Positions 11,708-56,500 of a DNA stretch of 64,000 nucleotides are shown piece after piece. The first letter of the stretch is position 1; each line of letters starts with the position of its first letter. The position numbers and the translations under genes were made by a program. The notes below the pieces were generated by a model. It was not told where the DNA came from, did not search any database, and saw only the letters and a program-made list of their open reading frames with translations. The stretch spans positions 5,673,725 to 5,737,724 of the forward strand of contig NC_057759.1 in assembly GCF_004010195.1 (NCBI RefSeq). The letters run 5' to 3'. Source of the stretch: Chiloscyllium plagiosum (lineage: Eukaryota).

Positions 11708-12428
11708 AAACTCTGTCGGATTGATTATTTCCCTTTTAATGTGGAGAACCTTTGTACCGGACATCAATGAATTCCACGCTCCATTTAACTGGATACTGTT
11801 GCTGTCGGTTATCAGGAAGAATTTATCATACAATTGCATTTTGAGTGTCCTGAACTACAGGATTTCTTATTGAATGGTCACTGCCTGAGTGACCATTCAG
11901 TTATAGACTGGCGGCACGAACGTCCGCGATCGGGTTTGACCTCACATTAGATTCTCATTTCTTTTAAGTGCAGTAGGAAGAGCTGGGTTGACCCAGTGCA
12001 GTAACGGGTCAGTCGCTGCAGAATACAGTAAGAAACAATCCCTGACTCTCTGCGCTTTATTCTCTCTCGGTTCATATTCAGTCTTTTATCCCCTGCCTCT
12101 GGGGAGAGAGAGAGAGAAAACAGATTGAACACCAGTGAGGCATTTTCAGCTGTAAAGGCGTGAATGGGGTGAAGTGAAATTGTCTGAACTTTAATTTCGT
12201 AATCGAAAAAGCAATCAACGTGTACGTGCTCATTTATTCTCCTCTGTAAAACTTGCTGCAGGCACAAGAATAAGTTTTTGAGAAACATCGACCAGGATCG
12301 AATGGCAGAATAAACTGGATGGGCAGAATGGCCAAATGTTTCTGCATCTCAAAAGTGACGAAGCGATTCTTTACATGGAATAACCAGATTACAGTACAGT
12401 CTCGGTTGACCAAATCGACACTCTAGGA

Positions 12429-12551
12429 GAAAGTGAGGTCTGCAGATGCTGGAGATCAAAGTTGAAACTTTATTGCTGGAACAGCACAGCAGGTCAGGCA
12501 GCATCCAGGGAACAGGAGATTCGACGTTTCGGGCACAGGCCCTTCTTCAGG
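12429..12551 (-). mobile_element. Very short, young Penelope-like insertion ending at a hammerhead ribozyme
   Basis: 16-bp TSD AATCGACACTCTAGGA at 12413-12428 and 12552-12567; sequence matches 37472-37599. Confidence 0.85.
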
Positions 12552-12872
12552 AATCGACACTCTAGGAATACATGCTAACGTAAACAGCAACAAAGCGGAT
12601 CCACTGTGAATACTCTCTGCAGAACACGGCATTAGTACATTTTTTGCAATTCAAATAATTTTAAAGTCGCGATAAATGTGAAATAACTAGCCTCCCCTTC
12701 CTTTTTTATACAGCCCGGCCCGACCTGACTGAGAAAGAGCTGAGTGAGAGGCGGGTCCGGAGAGGAAACTGAGTGACAGACAGAGCAGGGAAATGGATTT
12801 GATCATCTAGCTCCGCCTCCAGCTCACTCCAGCCCCAACTGTCTCTGGGACTGAACCTTTTTTTTCTCGAAA

Positions 12873-13271: not shown

Positions 13272-14310
13272 AGTGGAAAGGCAACAATTCGTAAGGAAGA
13301 TAAGTTAATAAATAGGTCTGTGTGCGCTTAACTGGTCACTCCTGTAGGCCCTTAGCCATCCATCAGGTCGGAAAAACACATCCAGCCCAGTCAGTGCCTG
13401 TTGGTGAGGTAGGTCCCTGTCATAAAGAGGTATCAGTCTAAACTAAGTGTAAGAAGTCATAAGGTAACCTTGCACAGCTTGCATCTCGGATATCATTGTT
13501 TTACAAAATGGCATCTTAGTGAGGAGGGCAAACTTTGACCATAAAATGGTTTCCTGACAGATTGTGTCAGAATCTCTTCAATGTTAGGTTTAGAATAATT
13601 TTTAAACTAGGAGCAGACTCCTGTTTTTTACCTTAAACACAAAATCATTCTGTATCTGAGGCAGAAATGTTAAATTTTAAATGGTTTATTAGTCTCAAAT
13701 TAAACATTCTTTCTAGGGTTGTGATTCAAAGAAGACAGAAGATCTGACAAGTTAGAACTGACAGTGGGGCATTCGTGGTGTGTAGGAACACCAAGTAAGT
13801 TAAAGCTTCATCAATATTACATTTTAGAGTTGGCATTTCATAATCAGCGATGGCTACTCAAAATCATCATAAAGACCCAAAATGCAAATAAATTCAAAAT
13901 ATGCATCTCTTTCTCTCTTACATGCGCACACACACACGGGTAATAAGAATCCATTATAATTGTTAGCACCTGACCGTTTATTACAAGGCTTTTGACATGC
14001 TTCTGAGATGATACAAAGTTTCCGAGATCACAATCAAACACTGTCATTAAATTAATACGTTAACAACTGTGAATGTTACCACTGTGTCTTTTTTATACAG
14101 ATTCATTGATGTTGAGGCAAATGTTCTTAATTGCTTTAGAGCATCCTGTTATCACTTGGTGAGAACAGATGTTTTTTTATCTTCTGCACATCCTAGGTTC
14201 CCCTTTTTGTGGCCTGATGCCTCCCTGCCTGCCCTGTTTATTTTCTTGTGTTCTATAATTCAACATTACATTTAGTCTAAGTATTTAAGGACCAGTTTTA
14301 AGGCTTACTA
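13272..14310 (-). mobile_element. Partial solo LTR related to ERV-B LTRs
   Basis: Colinear with 34900-36078 (gtcataaggtaaccttg, ttttacaaaatggc, gaccataaaatgg...cagattgtg, gtttaaggct end). Confidence 0.85.
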
Positions 14311-34554: not shown

Positions 34555-36078
34555 TGTTAATGTACAAATTTGAGACAGCCCAGGGAATCCCTTGTGGACT
34601 CAGACCTGTAAAGCCTGTCTCTTGGTTCATCCCGGAGATCGGACTCTTTGGAAGTCTGCAATAAAACCCTCTTGCAGACAGTTTAGTTTAATTTTAGTCA
34701 TCCCTTTTATTCACTAATAGTATCACTCTTACACCATAACACTGATACCTATAAGCTAAACTAACGAGTTCTAATAACGTAAGACAGTGAGGTACCATCT
34801 CTTCAAGTGCCCCAGCAGGCTACTCCGATGTACTGCTACAAAGTGGCTTCTTTTATACAAAAGTTTACAAAAACATTGCATGTTCTTAATTAGACAGATA
34901 AGTGAAAGAGAATAATTCTAAGGAAGAAAAGTTAATTGACAGATATGTGTGTGTGTGTGCTTGACTGATCACTCCCACAGGCCTTGAGCTATCCATCAGG
35001 TAGGAAAAACATACCTAGCTGAGTTAAGCATCTGCTCGTGAGATAAGTTCCTATAAAGGAGTACCAGTCTAAATTAAGTGGGAGATGTCATAAGGTAACC
35101 TTGAACAGCTCACATGTCTGATATCATTGTTTTACAAAATGGCTTCTTAGCAAAGGCGTCAAATCTGTGACCATAAAATGGCTTCCTGACAGATTGTGTT
35201 AGAATCTCTTCAATGCTAGGTTTAGAATAATTTTAAGCTGGGAGCAGATTCCTGCTTTTTATCTTAAGCACAGAATCATTCTGTACTTGATGCTGAAATG
35301 TTACTGCAAGGTTGTATCTAAAATGATTAATTAGTCTCGAATTAAACACTGTTTTCAACATTGTGATTCAAATTCAAATAAGACATAATATCTGACTAGT
35401 TAGAGTTGACTGTGGGGCAGTCTGTAAGGTCTGTAAAGTGGTCTGCAAGAACAGCAAGTAAGTTAAAGCTTCATTAATATTACCTGTTGCAGAGTATGTA
35501 TTCAATAACTGGTAATGGCTACTCAATAGCATCATAAAGACCCAAAATGCAGTTAAATTCCAATCCATAGCAGATAAGCACTAAGTGTTAATTTTCCACA
35601 GGCTCCAATAGCCTCACCACTAAAATGGTCTCTCCCTCTCGTGTCATTTTGAACTCTCAAGTCAGCAAAGATTTTTCTCTCTCTCTCTGTCTGCCCCGCT
35701 TGCAAGGGGTAATAAGAATCCATTATAATTGGCAGCATCCTGCCGTTAATTACAAATCTTTTGATAGTACCGAGTTCCATTTCAGAGTCAGAATCAAACA
35801 CTCTTAATTTCACAAGGGAACGGCTGTGAATGTTATTACTTGGTGTCCTGTTCACACAGATTCACCGATGCTAAGGCAAATGTTCTTAATTGCCTTACAG
35901 CATCCTGTTATCATTTGGTGAGCCCAGATGTCCCTATCTTCTGCATTCCCTGAGATCTCCCCTTTTTCTGAGCCTTCCTGCCTGTCTATTTTCTAGTCCA
36001 GTAAATGTGTTCTATAATTCTGCATTATATTTTAGTCTAAATGTTTAAAGACAGGTTTTAAGGCTATAGACTTTCTCA
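34555..36078 (-). repeat. ERV-B 3' LTR (~1.5 kb)
   Basis: TG...CA; homologous to 40833-46072 minus insertions; PPT AAAACAAGGGAA at 36079-36090 on minus strand. Confidence 0.9.
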
Positions 36079-37471
36079 TTCCCTTGTTTTGTCATTTCAT
36101 GACAACTATTTGGCTTATACAAGTATACTTAGTCTATTCAGTCAATTTGTATTCTTAATAAGTCACGTGCCTCCTCTGACGAGCAGAATCTGAAAAATAC
36201 TGGATTTCAGCATGGAAGTTCGGGCATGGAGATAGAGGGGGAGACATGGGTCGATTAATCAGATTCCTCTTTGGCTTAGATGAAAAGCGATGTACGGTCC
36301 ATTTCATGCATAAGCAGACGGCAATGTATATTCCTAGGATGAGACCAAGGATTATCAGTACGTCCCACACAGGCTCCATCCGTACAGCGACCGTAGCCAG
36401 CAAGTAAAACTCCATCCATGTGAGTCAGATGACTGTGGGGCAGGTACCTTCCCTGCGTCTTGACCTGTTTTGTTGATAACATCTGTATCGTCCAAAATGT
36501 CTTTCAAGAAATCATTGATGTTGGTGCAACATTGCGGGCCAATGACTGAACAGGCGTCTCCTTCTTTAGGAGGAAATCTAGCACTCGTCGACTCTGAAGC
36601 ATCATCATCTGAGTATCCTGTAACTCTTTGTTCACCAGTTTCAAAGCATGGGAAGTCAAGTTGGCAGATGTTTTGATCTCATACGCAAGGTCAATTATCA
36701 ATACCCCAGCCAGCAACCTGGACCACCAGGTTTGTTGGTGGAAGAAGTTGTGCAAGTCCCATTTTGTTTTTCCTCTACTTGTTGCTTCATACTGATTCAC
36801 CTGCTGGTGGGTGTTCCATTCATCATCTACTTCAGGCATCTCATGGTGAGGGAGTGGAAAGTGGAAAGAGTATTAGAATGGTGGAAGAGTGAGCAGATAA
36901 TACATGGGTCAGGGGGCTTAGCTTGAACAAAGAAACCATTAATAACAGGAAGAGGATTGGGAGTGCATAGTATTTTTGGTCGTTCATCATCTTTTCCAGC
37001 TTGTCTTGTTAATTACTGTAGCTACTGAATACAGGAAACATGTAAAGATATTTCTGTCAGTGGCAGTAGATTGGATAGGATAGGATTCATCAAGAAGGTA
37101 TAAGTGGTCAGTCTCATGGCAATAGGTGCCTTAAGGTTTGGTGATTTCTGTACGATGTGCTCAATACTGCAATCTGCATGGTTCATTTTGAAAAGGGAAC
37201 AGACAAGCATCTCAAGGTAGCAATTTTCAGGTGATGGAATGGACAAGGTTATGGAATTGTGCTATCTCACGATGACTGGCATAGAAGTGTTGTAAGGATG
37301 ACAATAAGGTCGAGAGTGATGTTTGGATATGCAATGCGAGTAGTTTAAATGAGCTTCAGCTGGGCAGCTGCATTCATAACTTCCAATGGTATTAGTACAG
37401 GTATCATACATACAGTCACACTGGAGTTTTAGCTGGTCTAGGTTATCACAGAAGGGTTGGTTATATTTGTG

Positions 37472-38295
37472 GAGAAAGTGAGGTCTGCAGATGCTGGAGA
37501 TCAAAGTTGAAACTTTATTGCTGGAACAGCACAGCAGGTCAGGCAGCATCCAGGGAACAGGAGATTCGACGTTTCGGGCACAGGCCCTTCTTCAGGAATG
37601 AGCAGAGAGTGTTCAGCAGGAGAAGATAAAAGGTAGGGAGGAGGGACTTGGAGGAGGGGAGTTGGAAATGTGATAGGTGGAAAGAGGTCAAGGTGAGGGT
37701 GATAGGTCGGAGTAGGACGGAGGCGGAGAGGTCAAGAAGAAGACTACAGGTCAGGAAGGCTTGGTTGGGTTGGTTCGTCCGGGTGGCCCAGAGGTGCTCT
37801 CTGAATCGCTCCGCAAGTAGGCGGCCTGTCTCGCCAATATAGAGGAGGCCACACCGGCTGCATCGGATGCAGTAGATGATGTGGGTGGAGGTGCAGGTGA
37901 ATGTGTGGCGGATATGGAAGTTTCCTTTGGGGCCTTGGAGGGAAGTGAGGGGGGAGGTGTGGGCGCAAGTGTTGCACCTCCTGCGGTTGCAAGGGAAGGT
38001 GCCCACCTTGTCTCAGCCGGATCCTTCCCGCCCGGCACCGCCTTCCTGTCCTGCAGTCTTCTTCTTGTCCTCTCCGCCTCCACCCTACTCCGACCTATCA
38101 CCCTCACCTTGACCTCTTTCCACCTATCACATTTCCAACTCCCCTCCTCCAAGTCCCTCCTCCCTACCTTTTATCTTCTCCTGCTGAACACTCTCTGCTC
38201 ATTCCTGAAGAAGGGCCTGTGCCCGAAACGTCGAATCTCCTGTTCCCTGGATGCTGCCTGACCTGCTGTGCTGTTCCAGCAATAAAGTTTCAACC
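37472..38295. mobile_element. Young Penelope-like insertion with inverted pLTRs, nested in ERV-B env
   Basis: 15-bp TSD TTGGTTATATTTGTG (37457-37471, 38296-38310); GIY-YIG remnant IIYCIRCSRCGLLYIGETGR; ~37503-37759 inverted at ~38040-38294. Confidence 0.93.
38201..38236 (+). ncRNA. Minimal type I hammerhead ribozyme in Penelope pLTR
   Basis: ATTC-CTGAAGA-A-GGGC CTGT GCCC-GAAAC-GTC-GAAT: core CUGANGA/GAAA, stem II, stem I ATTC/GAAT, palindromic ACGT stem III; identical copies on minus strand at 37564-37599 and 12519-12554. Confidence 0.8.
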
Positions 38296-38371
38296 TTGGT
38301 TATATTTGTGCACATGTACTTGGATTGGGCTTTCATCAGATGCCTGTATCAGTACTAACACTAGAACTGTG

Positions 38372-40175
38372 AGGGGGCTACAAGCTTGCAATGTCCTTTG
38401 TAGACCCATGTTGAGCATCCTTCTAGCTTTACTGCAGTTTCAGTTGTCAGAAGAACTTGATAAGGACTTTTCCAGGGGGTCCCAATTTTCCACAATTAAA
38501 GTCTTTCAACAGTATGTAGTCACCAGGGTTAATGTCTTTAAATATTGGAACTCTTTCTTCTTCCTTCCCTGGTATTCGATAAGCTTATTTGACCTGTTGA
38601 TGATAAGACTGCAGTGCTTTGGTTAGCTTAATCAGGTACCTGTGCACCTCTGCCACGAAATGCACATCAACGATGTGTTGGGCAGTTAATGTTGCAGACC
38701 AGAGAGTCCTCAGGGGCTTCCATATATTAGTTCAGCCGCCGAGAATCCTGTCTTTGTCTGTGTCATGGGCCTCATATTAAAAAGGGCGATTGGAAGTACT
38801 TGCAGCCAATTAAGGCCTGCTTCTTCTACCAATTTGCTTAGCTGACCTTTTAGGGTACCATTGGCTCTTTCTACAATTGCTGCTGCTTGGGGATGGTTGG
38901 CACAATGGAATTTTTGATTCATATTCAAGCTCTTACATATTTCCTTGTTTAGCTCCACACAGAAGTGGGGGCCATTATCAGAAGAGACCGTTACTGGTAT
39001 TCCAAATCTGGGTATGATTTCCCTTAACAGAATTTTACAAGTAGTTGTTGCTGTGCAGTCAGTACAAGGATAAGCTTCAATCCATTACTGAATACATCGA
39101 TTATCACTAAGCTATACTTATAACCACGTCTTCTAGGTAACTATAAAATCTAACTGGATAGTATCAAAAGGTGCACTTGGCAAGGGAGTTTCACCTGGTG
39201 GGCACTTTATTCCTTTCCCGGAATTATACTTTTGACGAATTAGGCAATTTGCAGCTACTTGTTTTGCTTTTTCTTGCAGGTGGGAATTCCACCAAGTTTG
39301 GAGAATTCTGTCCACCATTCCCTCCATACCTACATGCATATACGTATGAACATAATCAACTAGAATAGGCAAAAGCAAGTCAGGTAGACGTGTCTGTCTT
39401 ACCGGCGTAACCCAAAGCTTATTATAACTACATACATAACAACCATGGTTCATCTATCTTTGTCTTTCCTCATCAGAGGCATCCCCCAATGGGACCGTAT
39501 TTGCTCTCGGTCAGGCATGGTCGTGGTATCAGAAGAGGAAATAGGAGAGTCTCTCTTTGGTTTCCTGTTTGTCATTTGAGTGACCATGTCGTTTTGCTCA
39601 AGAGCTGCTTTCTTAGCAGCTGCGTCAGCAGAATTGTTGTTTTCAATGACATCGGAAGTATCAGAGGAGTGAGCAGAACATTTGATAATTGCCAATTGAG
39701 GGGGAAATTGAATAGCAATGAGGAGATTAGCATCACAGGCAGCATTGAGGGTAGGGATTCCTGATGAGCTAAGGAAGCCGCGCTGCTGCCAAAGTTGAAC
39801 AAAATTATGGGCTCATCTAAAGGCGTAATGGGAATCAGTATAGCTATTAGCTGACTTTCTTTTAGCAAGTATACAGGCACAGGTGAGAGTAAGGAGTTCA
39901 ACTTGCTGGATGGAACAGGGTGGGTCAACAGAATAAGCTTCTAGTGTCTGGGAAAAAGTGACAATCGCGTATCCTGACATACATTTGCCCTCTGGAGAGA
40001 TAGAAGAAGAACCATCGACATAAAGTGTAAGGTCTGGGTTAACTAGAGCCTGATCGGTAAGATCAGGACATGGTTTACTAACAAGTTAATTTATGAGAAC
40101 ACAACCATGGGGAGGATCAGGCAGTTCAAGATGTTCTTCCTGTAGGAATGTAACGGGGTTAATGTGAGAGCAGTA
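38372..40175 (-). pseudogene. pol: ERV-B pol 3' part (tether, RNase H, integrase); RT and most gag deleted
   Basis: YCSHINPVTFL, LYVDGSSS, AIIKCSAH, HTYMHVG...ANCLI, TIQLDFI, SSDNGPHF, HPQAAAIVERANGTLK, PYQVLLTTETAVK. Confidence 0.92.
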
Positions 40176-40832: not shown

Positions 40833-43800
40833 TGTTAACATACAGATTTGAGACAGCCCAGGGAATCCCTTGTGGACTCAGACCTGTAAAGCCTCTCCCT
40901 TGGCTCATCCCGGAGATTGTCCTCTTTGGAAGTCTGGAATAAAAACCTCTTACACAGTTTAGTTTAATTTTAATCAGCCCCTTTATTCACTAATAGCATC
41001 ACTTACAACATAACACTGATACCTATGAACTAAACTAAACTAACTAGGTTTAACTAGGAGAGTAGAGTACCAGCTGGCTACTCCGATGTACTGTTGCAAA
41101 GTGGCTTCCTTGATACAAAAATTTACAAAAACATTGCATGTTCTTAATTAGATAGATAAGTCATAGTCGTAGAGTCATAGAGATGTACAGCATAGAAACA
41201 GACCCTTCAGTCCAACCTGTCCGTGCCAACCAGATATCCCAACCCAATCTAGTCCCATCTGCCAGCACCCGGCCCATATCCCTCCAAACCCTTCCTATTC
41301 ATATACCCATCCAAACGCCTCCCTCAGCCTCCGACACTCCAGGGAACACAGCCTCAACCTGTTCAGCCTCTCCCTGTAGCTCAGATCCTCCAACCCTGGC
41401 AACATCCTTGTAAATCTTTTCTGAACCCTTTCAAGTTTCACAACATCTTTCCAGTGAAAGACAATAATTCGTAAGGAAAAAAAGTTAACTGACGGATCTG
41501 TGTGCACTTGACTGATCGCTCCTATAGGACTTGAGCTATCCATCAAGTAGGAAAAACATACCCAGCTGAGTGAAGCATCTGCTCACGAGATAAGTTCCCA
41601 TAAAGAAGTACCAGTCTAAATTAAGTGGGAGATGTCATAAGGTAACCTTGCACAGCTCACATGTCTGATATGATTTTTTTATTTCAAAAATGTACTTCAT
41701 TCATAAAACACTTTGATCTATACAACTGGACATGCCATACATATGTAAACATTCCATTTGTTTGCATACCGAAACAGAGTAATCATTCCTATTTACAGGT
41801 CTATGCAATTACATTTTTAACTGAGGCGTCAGCAGAGCCCAAATGACTGCGTGGGCCCCCTGTTCTTCTTTAGGCAGGCAGATGTTACACGGTGGTCTTT
41901 CCCCACCGCGCCTTGGCAGCAGCTGCCCCAAGCTCCAGCGCGTCCCTCAACACGTAGTCCTGGACCTTGGAATGTGCCAGTCTGCAACACTCACTTGGGG
42001 TCAACTCCTTCAGCTGGAAGATCAACAGGTTTCAGACCACCCAGAGAGCGTCCTTCACCGAGTTGATGATCCTCCAGGCGCAGTTGATGTTCGTCTCAGT
42101 GTGCGCCCTGGGGAACAGGCCATAGGGCACGGAGTCCCACGTCATAGCGCTGCTCGGGATGAACCTCGACAAACGCCACTGCATTCCTCTCCAGACTTCC
42201 TCTGCATAGGCACATTACAGAAGAAGGTGTGTGACAGTCTTGTTCCCACGGCAGCCGCTTCGAGGGCAGCGTGCGGTGCGGCAGAGAGTCTGGGCGTGCA
42301 TGAAGGATCTCACAGGCAGAGCCCTTCTCACCACCAGCCAAGCCATGTTTTGGTGCTTGTGGAAAGTTCTGGTGATGAGGAATTCTGCCAAATGGCTTTG
42401 ACAGTCTGCTCAGGGAACTGCTCGACAGGATCCACCCTTTCCTTTTCCCGAAGGCTCTCAAAGACACTATGTGCTGACCACTTCCTGATGGACTTGTGGT
42501 CAAAGGTGTTTTTCTACATAAATTTCTCCATGAAGACAGGTGGTACGGAATGGTCCAGCTACTCGGAGCATTCCGCAGCAGCAAGGCCAGGCCCATCCTT
42601 CGCAACACCAGGGACAGGTAGAACCTCAGTACGTAGTGACACTTGATGTTTGCGTACCGGGGATCCACGCACAGCTTGATGCAGCCACACACAAAGGTGG
42701 CCATCAGGGTGAGGGTAGCATTGGGCGTGTTTTTTCCCTCATTGCACAGGTCTTTGTACATTGTGTCTCTTCGGACCCGGTCCATCTTTGCTCTCCACAT
42801 GAAGTGGAAGATGGCCCGGGTGACTGCGGCGGCACAGGTTCTGGGGATAGGCCAGACCTGTGCCACGTATACCAACACTGAGAGTACCTCACACCTGATG
42901 ACCACGTTTTTTCTGGCGATGGAGAGCGACTGTTGCTCCCATCTGCCTAGTTTCTGTCTCATCTTCCTGATCCGTTCCTCCCAGGTCTTGGCGCACGCCC
43001 CAGCCCCCCCGAACCAAATACCCAACACGTTCAGGTGGTCGGTCCTGACCGTGAAGGGGATAGAGGATTGGTCGGCCCAGTTCCAGAAGAGCATGGCCTC
43101 GCTCTTGCCTCGGTTTATCTTGGCCCCCGAGGCCTGCTCGAACTGGTCACAGATGCACGTGAGTCTGTACATGGACAGCGGATCCAAGCAGAAAACAGCG
43201 ATGTCATCCATGTATAGGGAGGCCTTAACCTGCAGGCCCCCACTGCCAGGAATAGTCACCCCTCTCAGTCTCTCATCCTTCCTGATGGATTCGGCAAATG
43301 GCTCGATGCAACACACAAACAAGGCAGGAGAGAGAGGGCAGCCCTGCCTGACTCCAGATCTTACAGGAAAGCTATCTGATTCCTACCCATTGATTGAGAC
43401 TGCACTGACAATGTTGGTGTAGAGCAGTCTGATCCAATTACCGATTCCCTCCCCAAAGCCCATTTTGGAGACGACATCCTTCATATATCCTGTCAAAAGC
43501 TTTCTCCTGGTCCAGGCTGATGAGGCAGGTGTCCACCCCCCTGTCCTGCACGTAGGCAATCGTATCTCTGAGGAGTATGAGACTCTCGGCGATCTTCCTA
43601 CCCGGTACAGCACAGGTTTGGTCAGGGTGGATCACCGATCCGAGAGCAGACCTGACCCGGTTGGCTATGACCTTTGACAAGATTTTGTAGGCTGTGTTTA
43701 ACAGTGAGATTGGTCTCCAATTTCTAATTTACTCCCTCTCCCCCTTCTGCTTGTAGATGAGGGTGATGATGCCTTTCCTCATGGATTCACTCATGGTACC

Positions 43801-46072
43801 TGCCTGAAGCATACTGATATACATCTCCAGCAGGTCCTGGCCAATCAAGTCCCAAAGAGCGGAATAGATCTCGACCGGTAAGCCGTCGCTTCCGGGAGTT
43901 TTGTTCTTTTCGAAGGACTCGAGGGCCTTGGTCAACTCATCCAGAGATAGCGGCTGGTCCAGCCTCTCTCGTGTTCCATCGTCTAGGACCTCCGTCATAG
44001 AGGACAGGAACGACTGGGAGGCTATGCTGTTGGTTGGCTTCGAGTCATACAGACTGGCATAGAAGGATTTGCTGATCCTCATTATGTCAGCCTGAGATGA
44101 TGTTACCGAGCCATCATCTTCCTTCAGGCTGCTGAGCACAGAGCTCTTTGTGCACCTTCTGGAAGAAGAAACGTGAGCATGTCTCGTCCTGCTCCAGGGA
44201 GCGGACTCTGGACCGGAAGATTATCTTGGAAGCCTCCGAGGCAAAGAGCGAGGCTTGCTGGCCCTTCACCTCCTGGAGGTCCTCCGTGACATCGACCCCC
44301 AACATCTGCAGCAGGAGCAGGTTCTGCATACTTTCCTGGAGCTGGGACAGTTTTCCCCGCCTCTCTCTCGCCTCCTGAACACCTTTGAGGATGAAGAACC
44401 TCTTGATGTTCCCTTTTTACTGTTTCCCACCAGTCCGCTGGAGTCTCGGGGGCTTCGTGGTTCTCCAATCTGCGTAATCACGCTTGAGCTCCTCGATGTT
44501 TCCTGGGGTCAACAGCTTAGTGTTCAGTTTCCACATTCCCTTACATCCCACTGCTCATCCTGTAGGTGACAGTCGGCCAGCAAGAGGCAGTGGTCAGAGA
44601 AGAACACCGGTTTGACGTCGGTGGTTCTGACCGAGAACGTTCGGGACACAAACAAGTAATCTGAGCGGATAGACCCATCTGCCCGTGACCAGGTGTATCT
44701 ACGCTGCGCTCCGTCTGCAGGGGTGCAGAAGACGTCGTGCAGCTTGGCATCTTTGACCGTTTCCGTCAGGGCTCTGGACATGGCGTCCAGTTTACTGTCC
44801 CCCCTGCCGGATCGTCCAAATGCATCAATGTTACAGTTGAAGTCTCCGGCCAGAATGACCAGCCTGGACGGAGCCAGCAACCGTGGAAGCTATTGCAGGA
44901 CTGCCAACCGTTCACTCTTATCGGCTGGGGCGTACACATTGATTAGTCTCATGGGAGCGTTTCGGTATGTAACATCCACGATGAGGAGGTGCCCGCCCAC
45001 CACCAACATAACCTCTGAGATGGTGAAGTTACCTCCTCGCAACAGAATACCCAGGCCTGAGGAGCGGTTATCGTTGCCCCCCAACCAAACTGACAGCCCG
45101 TGGGCCCACAAGCTCTACCATCTCCTGTAACTGCTGAGGTGTAGTTTTATGAAATGGTTTCTTAGCAAGGAGGGGAAACTTTTGACCATAACATGGCTTC
45201 CGGACAGATTGTATCAGAATCACTTCAATGTTAGGTTTAGAATAATTTTAAGCTGGGAGCAGATTCCTGCTTTTTATCATAAGCACAGAATCATTCTGTA
45301 CCTGAGGCTGAAATTTTACTGCATGGTTGTATTTAAAATGATTAATTAGTCTCAAATTAAACATGCCTTCTTTTCAAGTTTGTGATTCAAATTCAAATGA
45401 GTTATAAGATCTGACTAATTAGAACTGACAGTCTGTAAGGTCTGTAGAGTGATCTGCAAGAACAGCAAATAAGTTAAAGCTTCATTATTACCTGGTAATG
45501 GTACTCAATATCATCATAAAATCCCAAAATTCAGTTAAATTCAATGCATAGCAGATAAGCACTGAGTTAATTTTCTACAGGCTCCAATACCCTCAGCGCT
45601 AAAATGGTCTCTTCCCCCTAGTGTCCTTTTGAAACCTGATGTCAGCAAAGATTTTTTTTCTCTGTCTGCCCCGTTTGGAAGGGTTAGTAAGAATCCATTA
45701 TAATTGGCAGTATCTAATCATTAATTACAAAGCTTTTGATAGTACCGAGTTTCGTTTCAGGGTCAGAATCAAAACACTGTCATTAATTTCTTAAGGGAAT
45801 GGCTGTGAATGTGATCACTTGGTGTCCTGTTCACACGGATTCACCGATGCTACGGCAAATGTTTTTAATTGCCTTACAGCATCCTGTTATCACTTGGTAA
45901 GACCAGAGGTCCCTATCTGCTGCATTCCTTGAGATTCTTTCCCCCACCCCCCTCCACCTTTTCTGAGCCTTCCTGCCTGTCTATTTTCTAGTGCAGTGAA
46001 CGTGTTCTATAATTCAACATTACATTTTAGTTGAAATGTTTAAAAACCAGTTGAAGGCTATAGATTTTCTCA
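40833..46072 (-). repeat. ERV-B 5' LTR, interrupted by a CR1 fragment (~41161-41453) and a Tx1 LINE
   Basis: 40833-41160, 41454-41674 and 45144-46072 are colinear with 34555-36078. Confidence 0.9.
41675..45143 (-). mobile_element. 5'-truncated Tx1-clade LINE ORF2 (APE endonuclease, RT, C-terminal zinc knuckle), frameshifted
   Basis: LINVYAP, ILAGDFNC, FSDH; LDQEKAFDR, GVRQGCPLSP, LYMDD; A-rich 3' end at ~41675. Confidence 0.9.
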
Positions 46073-54457: not shown

Positions 54458-55591
54458 TTAATCCCTTCCCGCACTCTGGCAGGTGAATGGCTTCTCTCCC
54501 GTGTGGACCCGCTGGTGTGTCCGCAAGTTGCTCACGTGACGGAATGCCTTCCTGCATTCAGGACAGGTGAATGGCCGCTCCCCGGTGTGGACCCGCTGGT
54601 GCGTCTGCAGGTTACCCAACCGACTGAATCCCTTCCTGCACTCTGAGCAGGTGAAAGGCTTCTCTCGTGTATGGACCCGCTGGTGGGTCAGGAGTGTAGA
54701 TGACTCAGTGAACCCCCTCCTGCACACGGGGCAGGTGAACGGCTTTTCTCCTGTGTGAACCCGCTGGTGCCTCTGCAGATGTCCCATCTGACTGAATCTC
54801 TTCCCGCACACTGAGCAGATGAAAGGCTTCTCTCCGGTGTGGACCCGCTGGTGGATCAGGAGTTTAGATGACTCAGTGAACCCCCTCCCACACACTGGGC
54901 ATATGAACGGCTTCTCTCCCGTGTGGACCCGCTGGTGTGTCTGCAGATGGCCCACATGACTGAATCCCTTCCCACACTCTGAGCAGGTGAATGGCCTCTC
55001 CCCGGTGTGGATCCGCTGGTGGGTCCGTAGGCTGGAAGAATCAATGAATCCCTTCCCACACACTGAGCAGATGAACGGCTTCTCCCCGGTGTGGACCCGC
55101 TGGTGGGTCAGCAGGCCAGAAGAATCAATGAACCCCTTCCCGCACTGAGAGCAGATGAAAGGCCTCTCCCCTGTGTGGATCCGCTTGTGGATCAGCAGCG
55201 TAGATGAATAAGCGAACCCCTTCCCACACACCAAGCACGTGAATGGCCTCTCTCCGGTGTGGACCCGCTGGTGAGTCCGCAGGTTGGAAGAATTCACAAA
55301 CCCCTTCCCACACTGAGAGCAAGTGAACGGCTTCTCCCTGGTGTGGACACTGTTGTGGATCAGCAGTGCAGATGAGTGAGCAAATCCCTTCCCGCACATG
55401 GGGCAAGTGAACAGCTTCTCTCCCGTGTGGATCCGCTGGTGCTTCTGCAGATGACCCATCTGACTGAATGCCTGCCTACATACTGAGCAAGTGAACGGTC
55501 TCTCCCCAGTGTGAATGCGTCTGTGGGTTTCCAACACTGATGGGGAAGGAAATCCTTTCCCACAGTCCTCACATTTCCACGGTTTCCCCAT
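54458..55591 (-). CDS. C2H2 zinc-finger array protein, 13 fingers (377 aa)
   Basis: 13 CX2C-X12-HX3H units joined by TGE(K/R)PF linkers; upstream splice acceptor ttatttttgcag| at 55918. Confidence 0.93.
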
Positions 55592-56500
55592 TGGGGGAGC
55601 TTTCCTTGTGTCGCTCTGAGTTTGAAATTACAAACAGAATGTGTACGCAGTTTCTCCCCACCGTGAGTGGTGTCAGTTTGATCCTCCAAGCTGAGTAAAT
55701 GGTTTGAAGCACATTTCACAGACAGCGCACTGAATCTCCCTCACTCGGATGTCTCCATATTCTTCCTGCCATACCAGTGTCCAAAACCTCTCAAGCAGAC
55801 AAAAGGAAACATTTCTTCTCGATTTGAATAGCTGCTGATATTCAAGTCCCAATGAATCAAGTGGCTCTGTCAGAAGTTGATGTATCATATGCTTTCAGAC
55901 TTCTTTCCGCATGTCTTCCTGCAAAAATAAATTCACAAAATGATTGACCAGTTAGTACAGTTAAATAAACATAACATAGGTGGCAATTCTGGTAGATTGC
56001 TAGGTGCCTGCTGATCACACATTATCCAGGACACAAAAACCTGAAAACTCTTACGTAGCCAGAAAGCCTTAAGTGTGCGTAGAGGAAAACTTCATTTAGG
56101 TGACTAGGACCTGGAGCAACCTGCCTACAAAGTTGCTGGAGATGGAGCTGAATCAAGGATATGAAAATGAAAGGTCAAGGCTGCTTGAGAAAAGAAAGCC
56201 AGTAAATTTGCTGAATGACTTCCTGCTGTCCTATTACATTAAAAAGACAACAAGAAATACAGGACGTAACTCCATTCGAGGGTGAAGAATAATTGCAAAA
56301 TAGCTTTGACAACAGCCAATAATATCAGCTTTATACCATATGAAGCATTATACATCTAAATTTCGTACCAATGTGCTAAATCCTCAAATGCTGCTCAGTT
56401 TGATAAGATACTATCTTTTTACTTGCAAACATGAGGAAAGAAGCAATCCTTTTCTAGTGCCAAATCAAGAAGATACACAATGAAAATACCTTTAAGTGGG

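Follow-up and report, generated by a model that had tools for sequence, protein, structure and literature searches.

A pair of EGF domains in the surface subunit of a gamma-type retroviral envelope family in the shark Chiloscyllium plagiosum

Introduction

Gamma-type retroviral envelope (Env) proteins carry a CXXC motif in SU and an ISD and a CX6CC motif in TM, and are reported to be widespread in fish genomes (bioRxiv 10.1101/2021.11.23.469661; PMC9967133). Their receptor-binding domain (RBD) is found in the N-terminal half of SU, with the CXXC following in the C-terminal part, and the proline-rich region tolerates large in-frame insertions (PMC9967133). Several ERV lineages have captured host genes. 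Crocodilian ERVs have taken up KIT-ligand, as a separate ORF between pol and env, and the extracellular adhesion protein nectin3, which replaces env; both have a recognisable donor (PMC4299795). Frog ERVs have captured OGFr, and most of them still have an intact env (bioRxiv 10.1101/2021.11.23.469661).

Here we describe an ERV family of Chiloscyllium plagiosum whose gamma-type Env carries a pair of EGF domains within SU. No description of EGF domains in a natural retroviral Env was found in the openly available main texts searched. The word EGF is absent from the main texts, as available, of bioRxiv 10.1101/2021.11.23.469661, PMC4299795, PMC9967133, PMC10536682, PMC13709493, PMC4422223, PMC8672886 and PMC10435555, and that of PMC12813294 holds only EGFP.

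Structure of the window provirus

The window, the whole stretch of 64,000 nt that was analysed (Chiloscyllium plagiosum NC_057759.1), contains on its minus strand a broken ERV with pol remnants, an env running from 38418 to about 36150, and a 3′ LTR. Its features are as follows.

38420..40020, minus strand: pol remnants (RNase H, integrase zinc domain and core)
38341..38418, minus strand: env start and a hydrophobic stretch, by eye like a signal peptide
37472..38295, no strand assigned: Penelope-type insertion flanked by 15-bp direct repeats, with a GIY-YIG fragment and inverted arms
37331..37420, minus strand: putative hybrid EGF-like unit, in which the C-terminal half of the second EGF is joined to two Cys from the N-terminal block
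37031..37303, minus strand: post-EGF SU segment, proposed as ZP-N in the first-pass annotation, with no family match
36893..36907, minus strand: SU CXXC motif
36150..36730, minus strand: TM subunit remnants with several frame changes
36567..36599, minus strand: ISD-like stretch of TM
36526..36552, minus strand: CX6CC motif of TM
36305..36361, minus strand: membrane helix of TM
35129..36078, minus strand: 3′ LTR, beginning with TG after a purine tract
45144..46072, minus strand: related LTR with 11.1% mismatch to the 3′ LTR over 904 aligned nt; a candidate partner only, its pairing in one provirus being unproven

The env ATG at 38418 follows the integrase tail, as the first-pass annotation had it, and the peptide quoted there is present on the sequence; its six Cys fall at 37331-37420, and a stop codon stands at 37262-37264. 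Neither gag nor a retroviral reverse transcriptase (RT) motif was seen in the window provirus. While the LTRs at 35129-36078 and 45144-46072 differ by the 11.1% given above, the window env differs by only 2.4% from the closest copy on its contig; the discrepancy could be due to segmental duplication or to LTRs that are not a pair. At 13276-14305 lies a third LTR copy of this kind, more diverged (~76%) and possibly a solo LTR, and a LINE-like fragment with RVT_1 and endonuclease matches occupies 41450-45100, between the upstream LTR and the pol remnants. Elsewhere in the window, a 389-aa ORF on the minus strand (54458-55627) encodes 13 C2H2 zinc fingers in 84-bp repeats.

The sequence itself shows a 15-bp direct repeat on either side (38296-38310 and 37457-37471) of the Penelope-type insertion that had been proposed within env. 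Its inverted arms measure 259 nt, and its GIY-YIG match scores 23.5 bits against a cut-off of 22.6. Among 30 loci, only the window copy carries the insertion at this env site. One end of the element recurs 25 kb away as a 129-nt identical repeat (12426-12554 and 37471-37599), and on account of that identical end the element may be young.

EGF domains in long-form env copies

The segment first noted in the window produced 40 scored matches among 102 candidates in the 3.56-Gb assembly. The env 5′ part adjoins it in 28 of the 30 loci fetched (one of the others ends at a contig edge and one is without this part), and the module is flanked in the fetched loci by the env 5′ part, pol and TM. Because 28 of 30 loci carry the env 5′ part beside the segment, the module is a trait of the virus family. 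A one-off insertion after integration, the outcome that the first-pass annotation had set against its own reading, is thereby excluded.

In a protein search, copies surfaced in which the two halves of the query were 500-700 nt apart, and these led to longer env ORFs. By our own count from the 47 matches listed, there are about 25 long-form places, 11 of which were fetched. The long env encodes a putative signal peptide followed by a block with eight Cys, then a stalk in which Ser and Thr make up 41%, and lastly two EGF domains. The Thr-rich stalk need not have been captured and may be low-complexity sequence of viral origin.

Both EGF domains were recovered with profiles. The Pfam family EGF_3 (PF12947) matches two of eight long-form ORFs above its cut-off of 28.5 (34.9 and 35.0) and three more below it, and the first EGF has six Cys in ORFs P0011 and P0012. 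We also built an EGF profile from 40 host EGF units, taken from two ORFs of the shark genome and one amphioxus protein. This profile finds two EGF domains in 10 of the 11 long-form ORF pieces that score and one in the remaining piece; the pair reaches 15.7 and 13.1 bits, and its shuffles peak at 6.6.

Calcium-binding EGF domains have an acidic motif ahead of Cys1 and the pattern C-x-N-x4-Y/F-x-C. The second EGF of the long form agrees with this consensus in a column census of the 11 long copies: C243 is kept in 11/11, C249, C258 and C271 each in 10/11 and C260 in 8/11, N251 is kept in all 11, and acidic or Asn residues stand at 226-229. An acidic linker typical of calcium-binding EGFs joins the two units, which have loop insertions of their own; despite the divergence, the twelve Cys can all still be read, as can the calcium-binding residues. 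The long form never reaches the Pfam EGF_CA cut-off of 27 (best score 21.9), PDB sequence searches with long-form ORFs did not find EGF, and a fold model of mean pLDDT 46.8 did not form the pair with confidence. The proposal of a host-type EGF in SU stands, and the feature is larger than first noted, the long form having two clear EGFs; its coupling to a ZP-N domain is not supported.

The env that holds the module is a true gamma-type env with class I pol. The CXXC of SU falls in the same alignment column across copies, and the TM subunit is of gamma type, with a TLV_coat score of 30.3 bits against a cut-off of 22.5 (protein P0005) and PDB matches to syncytin-2 and GP2. Among PDB sequences, the RT of one long copy is nearest to MLV-type RT (E 1e-37; next RT group 5e-28). 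A canonical furin motif was not seen by eye in the three decayed copies inspected. The EGF pair lies N-terminal of the CXXC, the position of the RBD in gamma-type SU.

Two env lineages separated by a 543-nt gap

Removal of 16 duplicate identifiers and six host-gene loci from 77 loci left 55, among which residual assembly duplicates are possible. Eleven have the long env and 44, including the window copy, a short one, in a sample biased towards short copies by the short queries of the first searches. All 44 short loci are without cover of long-form residues 75-240, and the two arms abut wherever both are present. The gap between the forms is 543 nt and in frame. It brings together two similar stretches, one from the N-terminal Cys block and one from the second EGF, and, by the Cys count read from the long-form ORF, takes out twelve Cys, an even number. 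Because it cuts through an otherwise complete EGF, we read it as a deletion, and the short form was probably derived from the long one.

The split between long and short copies has a support of 100/100 on 521 shared columns, with a bootstrap that is not fully settled. Each lineage is star-like, with pairwise distances of ~13% within lineages and 22% between them. Within the short lineage, the window belongs to a clade of 10 copies with a second SU gap of ~440 nt, located in the window at 36868-36872, after the CXXC, and also present in loci L002, L005, L006, L007 and L011. This clade looks like a defective branch.

The structure of the window unit can be understood from this comparison. Its six-Cys stretch scores 15.0 bits on the host-EGF profile against a shuffle maximum of 8.5 (n=1000), and it matches Pfam EGF_CA at E 5e-4 and 20.7 bits, under the cut-off of 27. 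The gap shared by the short copies has its junction near 37408; the first two Cys of the unit derive from the N-terminal block and not from the second EGF, and the acidic motif before Cys1, which falls in the missing 543 nt, is absent. The calcium-binding EGF that had been assigned to 37331-37420 is therefore EGF-like beyond chance and is not one intact calcium-binding EGF; it reads as a hybrid left at the deletion junction. The window env copy is, to judge by its sequence, a dead deletion derivative.

The post-EGF segment

The first-pass annotation had also proposed a ZP-N block at 37031-37303 and, with it, an EGF-ZP arrangement like that of uromodulin and GP2. The last Cys of the proposed block (37031-37033) lies past a frame change near 37090 and has a stop after it, whereas the CXXC and TM are further on. 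The frame pattern could be classed in 28 of the 55 copies. The other frame is the one taken by 23 of these and the window frame by five, and only two of those five, hence two of the 28 classed, have the terminal Cys.

Searches in which positive controls worked gave no ZP match. There was no match to Pfam ZP families in the window, long-form or segment proteins. The ZP-N profile PF23344 matched none of seven proteins at E up to 10 and none of 28 segment members, and a PDB sequence search with the post-EGF segment gave no ZP match. A genome-wide search with a ZP-N model found 18 places, none of them at the listed env loci when compared by eye. A pair of host ZP-N exons found one another at E 7e-19 but did not match the env profile. 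Multi-copy ZP-N matches were considered as another ERV family and rejected, the two inspected resembling intron-containing host genes with no provirus match.

Structure prediction gave four beta strands at pLDDT 60-67 for the segment in one model and a pLDDT under 50 in a second. With structure models of mean pLDDT 46.8 and 44.8, Foldseek and VIA-align returned no stand-out match, and neither ZP nor EGF was listed, an outcome that speaks neither for nor against a ZP fold. A post-EGF profile run against 1.84 billion representatives gave four matches, all repeat artefacts; an ESM Atlas search with the post-EGF part gave no usable match, and viral contigs gave none, all of them weak blanks. Neither the ZP-N block nor the uromodulin-like arrangement is supported by the profile and sequence searches, and the segment may be ordinary SU.

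Selection, range and expression

SU, TM and integrase were under purifying selection between the long and short lineages. Among the columns that separate the lineages, third codon positions account for 33 of 69 in SU (P 0.009), 24 of 44 in TM (P 0.003) and 19 of 31 in integrase (P 0.001). This excess implies constraint on env in this frame during some or all of the branch, before or after the deletion. No individual SU segment is significant by itself; the C-terminal half of the EGF has 5 of 8 at third positions (P 0.09). In a variant-count test, private changes are about neutral, the EGF pair has a shared-variant ratio of 0.76 against 0.74 and 0.55 for shifted-frame controls, and neither the pair nor the post-EGF SU is separable from such controls. 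Within the window clade (10 copies), the third-position excess is absent in every gene.

The long EGF segment also occurs in DNA runs of two other organisms, B and C. Of the words of a long-form stretch, 21-28% are present in these runs, and in one run of each organism all 30 bins, EGF bins included, are covered at a likeness of at least 88%, with no single contig spanning them. As to expression, no RNA run was listed among those holding the stretch; one raw RNA run, of which 2% was read, gave one partial read, and a run only guessed to be RNA gave scattered contigs. Comparisons with longer proteins matched 0 of 1345 candidates for P0012 and 0 of 1244 for P0005, both weak blanks.

Donor search

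No donor gene was recognised: the best non-ERV match in the genome is a generic EGF array (E 0.027). Of 1312 EGF_3 candidates in the genome, 150 were scored. An amphioxus adhesion-GPCR EGF array shows 46% identity over 68 aa, and the leads differ among themselves: SUSD1 (score 0.83, below the threshold of 0.9), adhesion GPCR and fibrillin. The best-matching place in the host lies in a large-exon gene for an EGF array (L070:446-2647 and L071:327-3023, at 28.62 Mb of G000:C9), whose frames of 734 and 899 aa encode tandem calcium-binding EGFs with no intron between units. Because this host gene has intronless EGF arrays, the missing intron between the env units is not diagnostic. Two weaker host places were discarded, one as an unrelated single EGF exon and one as a chance match. 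Separately, about 100 EGF_3 exons lie on one strand over ~320 kb of G000:C19 (5.67-5.99 Mb), which form a very large EGF-array gene or a cluster. The donor results lead us to infer that the capture is old or was made from another host.

Origin and role of the EGF pair

The EGF pair in the SU of this gamma-type Env is real, family-wide and, as far as searched, undescribed. We consider it probable that the pair was captured in frame long ago and served as an accessory module for attachment or display. In this reading, the ancestor was a class I retrovirus whose Env was of gamma type, and it would have taken up in frame a host-type EGF and calcium-binding EGF pair, presumably by template switching, inserting it into the N-terminal half of SU beside the Thr-rich stalk and keeping the fusion machinery. 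Probably secreted in folded form, the pair would have played an adhesive role on the outer face of the spike, in imitation of a host EGF-bearing surface protein. In a sister lineage, an in-frame deletion between similar stretches would then have removed the stalk together with the first EGF and half of the second, and this lineage still multiplied; the window copy, itself dead, would belong to a young, further-deleted branch of it. As the sister lineage multiplied without the full pair, the pair was not essential for spread of the family in the genome.

A captured EGF pair on a mucin-like stalk might instead have been the cell-binding domain, joined to an otherwise ordinary gamma-type fusion apparatus and later remodelled to the hybrid by in-register recombination, so that the virus would have gained its receptor targeting from a stolen host ligand module; we think this unlikely. 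It is unlikely, too, that the pair is the RBD itself, with entry via the host receptor of the EGF module and a hybrid that kept or changed this role. The pair does lie in the RBD half of SU, and a deletion in register that keeps the frame and removes twelve Cys fits selection for a foldable unit; yet template switching at similar sequence yields such a deletion without selection, most of the pair is missing from 44 of 55 sampled loci (in sampling that favoured the short form), and the ~170 residues of unmatched SU between the EGF and the CXXC and beyond could be a conventional RBD. At the other extreme, the pair could be a functionless passenger, brought into env by recombination and harmless in a loop. 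The selection tests gave no clear signal for the pair, the larger lineage lost most of it, the window clade has no third-position excess anywhere, and the proline-rich region accepts large in-frame insertions (PMC9967133). Against this, twelve Cys and the calcium-binding residues remain readable although the pair is far from any host EGF in the genome, the pattern that constraint on the fold would leave; a passenger is therefore improbable.

Two further readings concern the identity of the domains. Chance resemblance of a Cys-rich viral SU to EGF would accord with the modest scores and the PDB sequence searches that found no EGF with long-form ORFs, but tandem units, an acidic linker, one unit above the Pfam cut-off and shuffles that stay at or below 6.6 bits make such convergence very improbable. 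Capture of an EGF plus ZP-N from a uromodulin/GP2-like gene, as in the first-pass annotation, is hardly credible: the four strands predicted in one model are compatible with a beta sandwich, but the second model does not reproduce them with any confidence, the last Cys is off-frame, and the Pfam, PDB-sequence, genome-profile and host-exon searches were blank.

To our knowledge, the origin and change of retroviral SU are poorly known, and the N-terminal halves of SU usually match nothing. The favoured reading, in which the pair is a captured accessory module, suggests that part of a host surface protein became a component of the viral entry machinery. If true, a recognisable host domain pair in the SU of a selected env would demonstrate one route of SU change, module exchange with host surface proteins while the fusion part was kept. 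The long and short Envs provide a natural comparison within one family, and an EGF profile placed upstream of a gamma-type TM is a simple genome screen for how common such Envs are.

Comparison with known systems

The family shares the CXXC, ISD, CX6CC and class I pol of anamniote gamma-type ERVs and differs from them in the Thr-rich stalk and EGF pair of its N-terminal SU. As in the crocodilian and frog captures, host coding sequence appears to have been carried and multiplied by an ERV lineage; here, in contrast, the module is fused in frame within SU, TM is kept, and the donor is not recognisable. Host tandems of an EGF and a calcium-binding EGF (SUSD1, adhesion GPCR E-like, fibrillin) have the same Cys spacing, acidic linker and C-x-N-x4-Y-x-C motif, whereas the env pair consists of two units only, with longer loops and no sushi, GAIN, TB or ZP family match in env. 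Use of an EGF-type module by a virus has precedents in the EGF-like growth factors of poxviruses, which are separate secreted proteins, and in engineered ligand-displaying retroviral Envs, which are man-made. The env pair differs from both in being a natural module inside a fusion protein and, by Pfam, of the matrix or adhesion type rather than the EGFR-ligand type.
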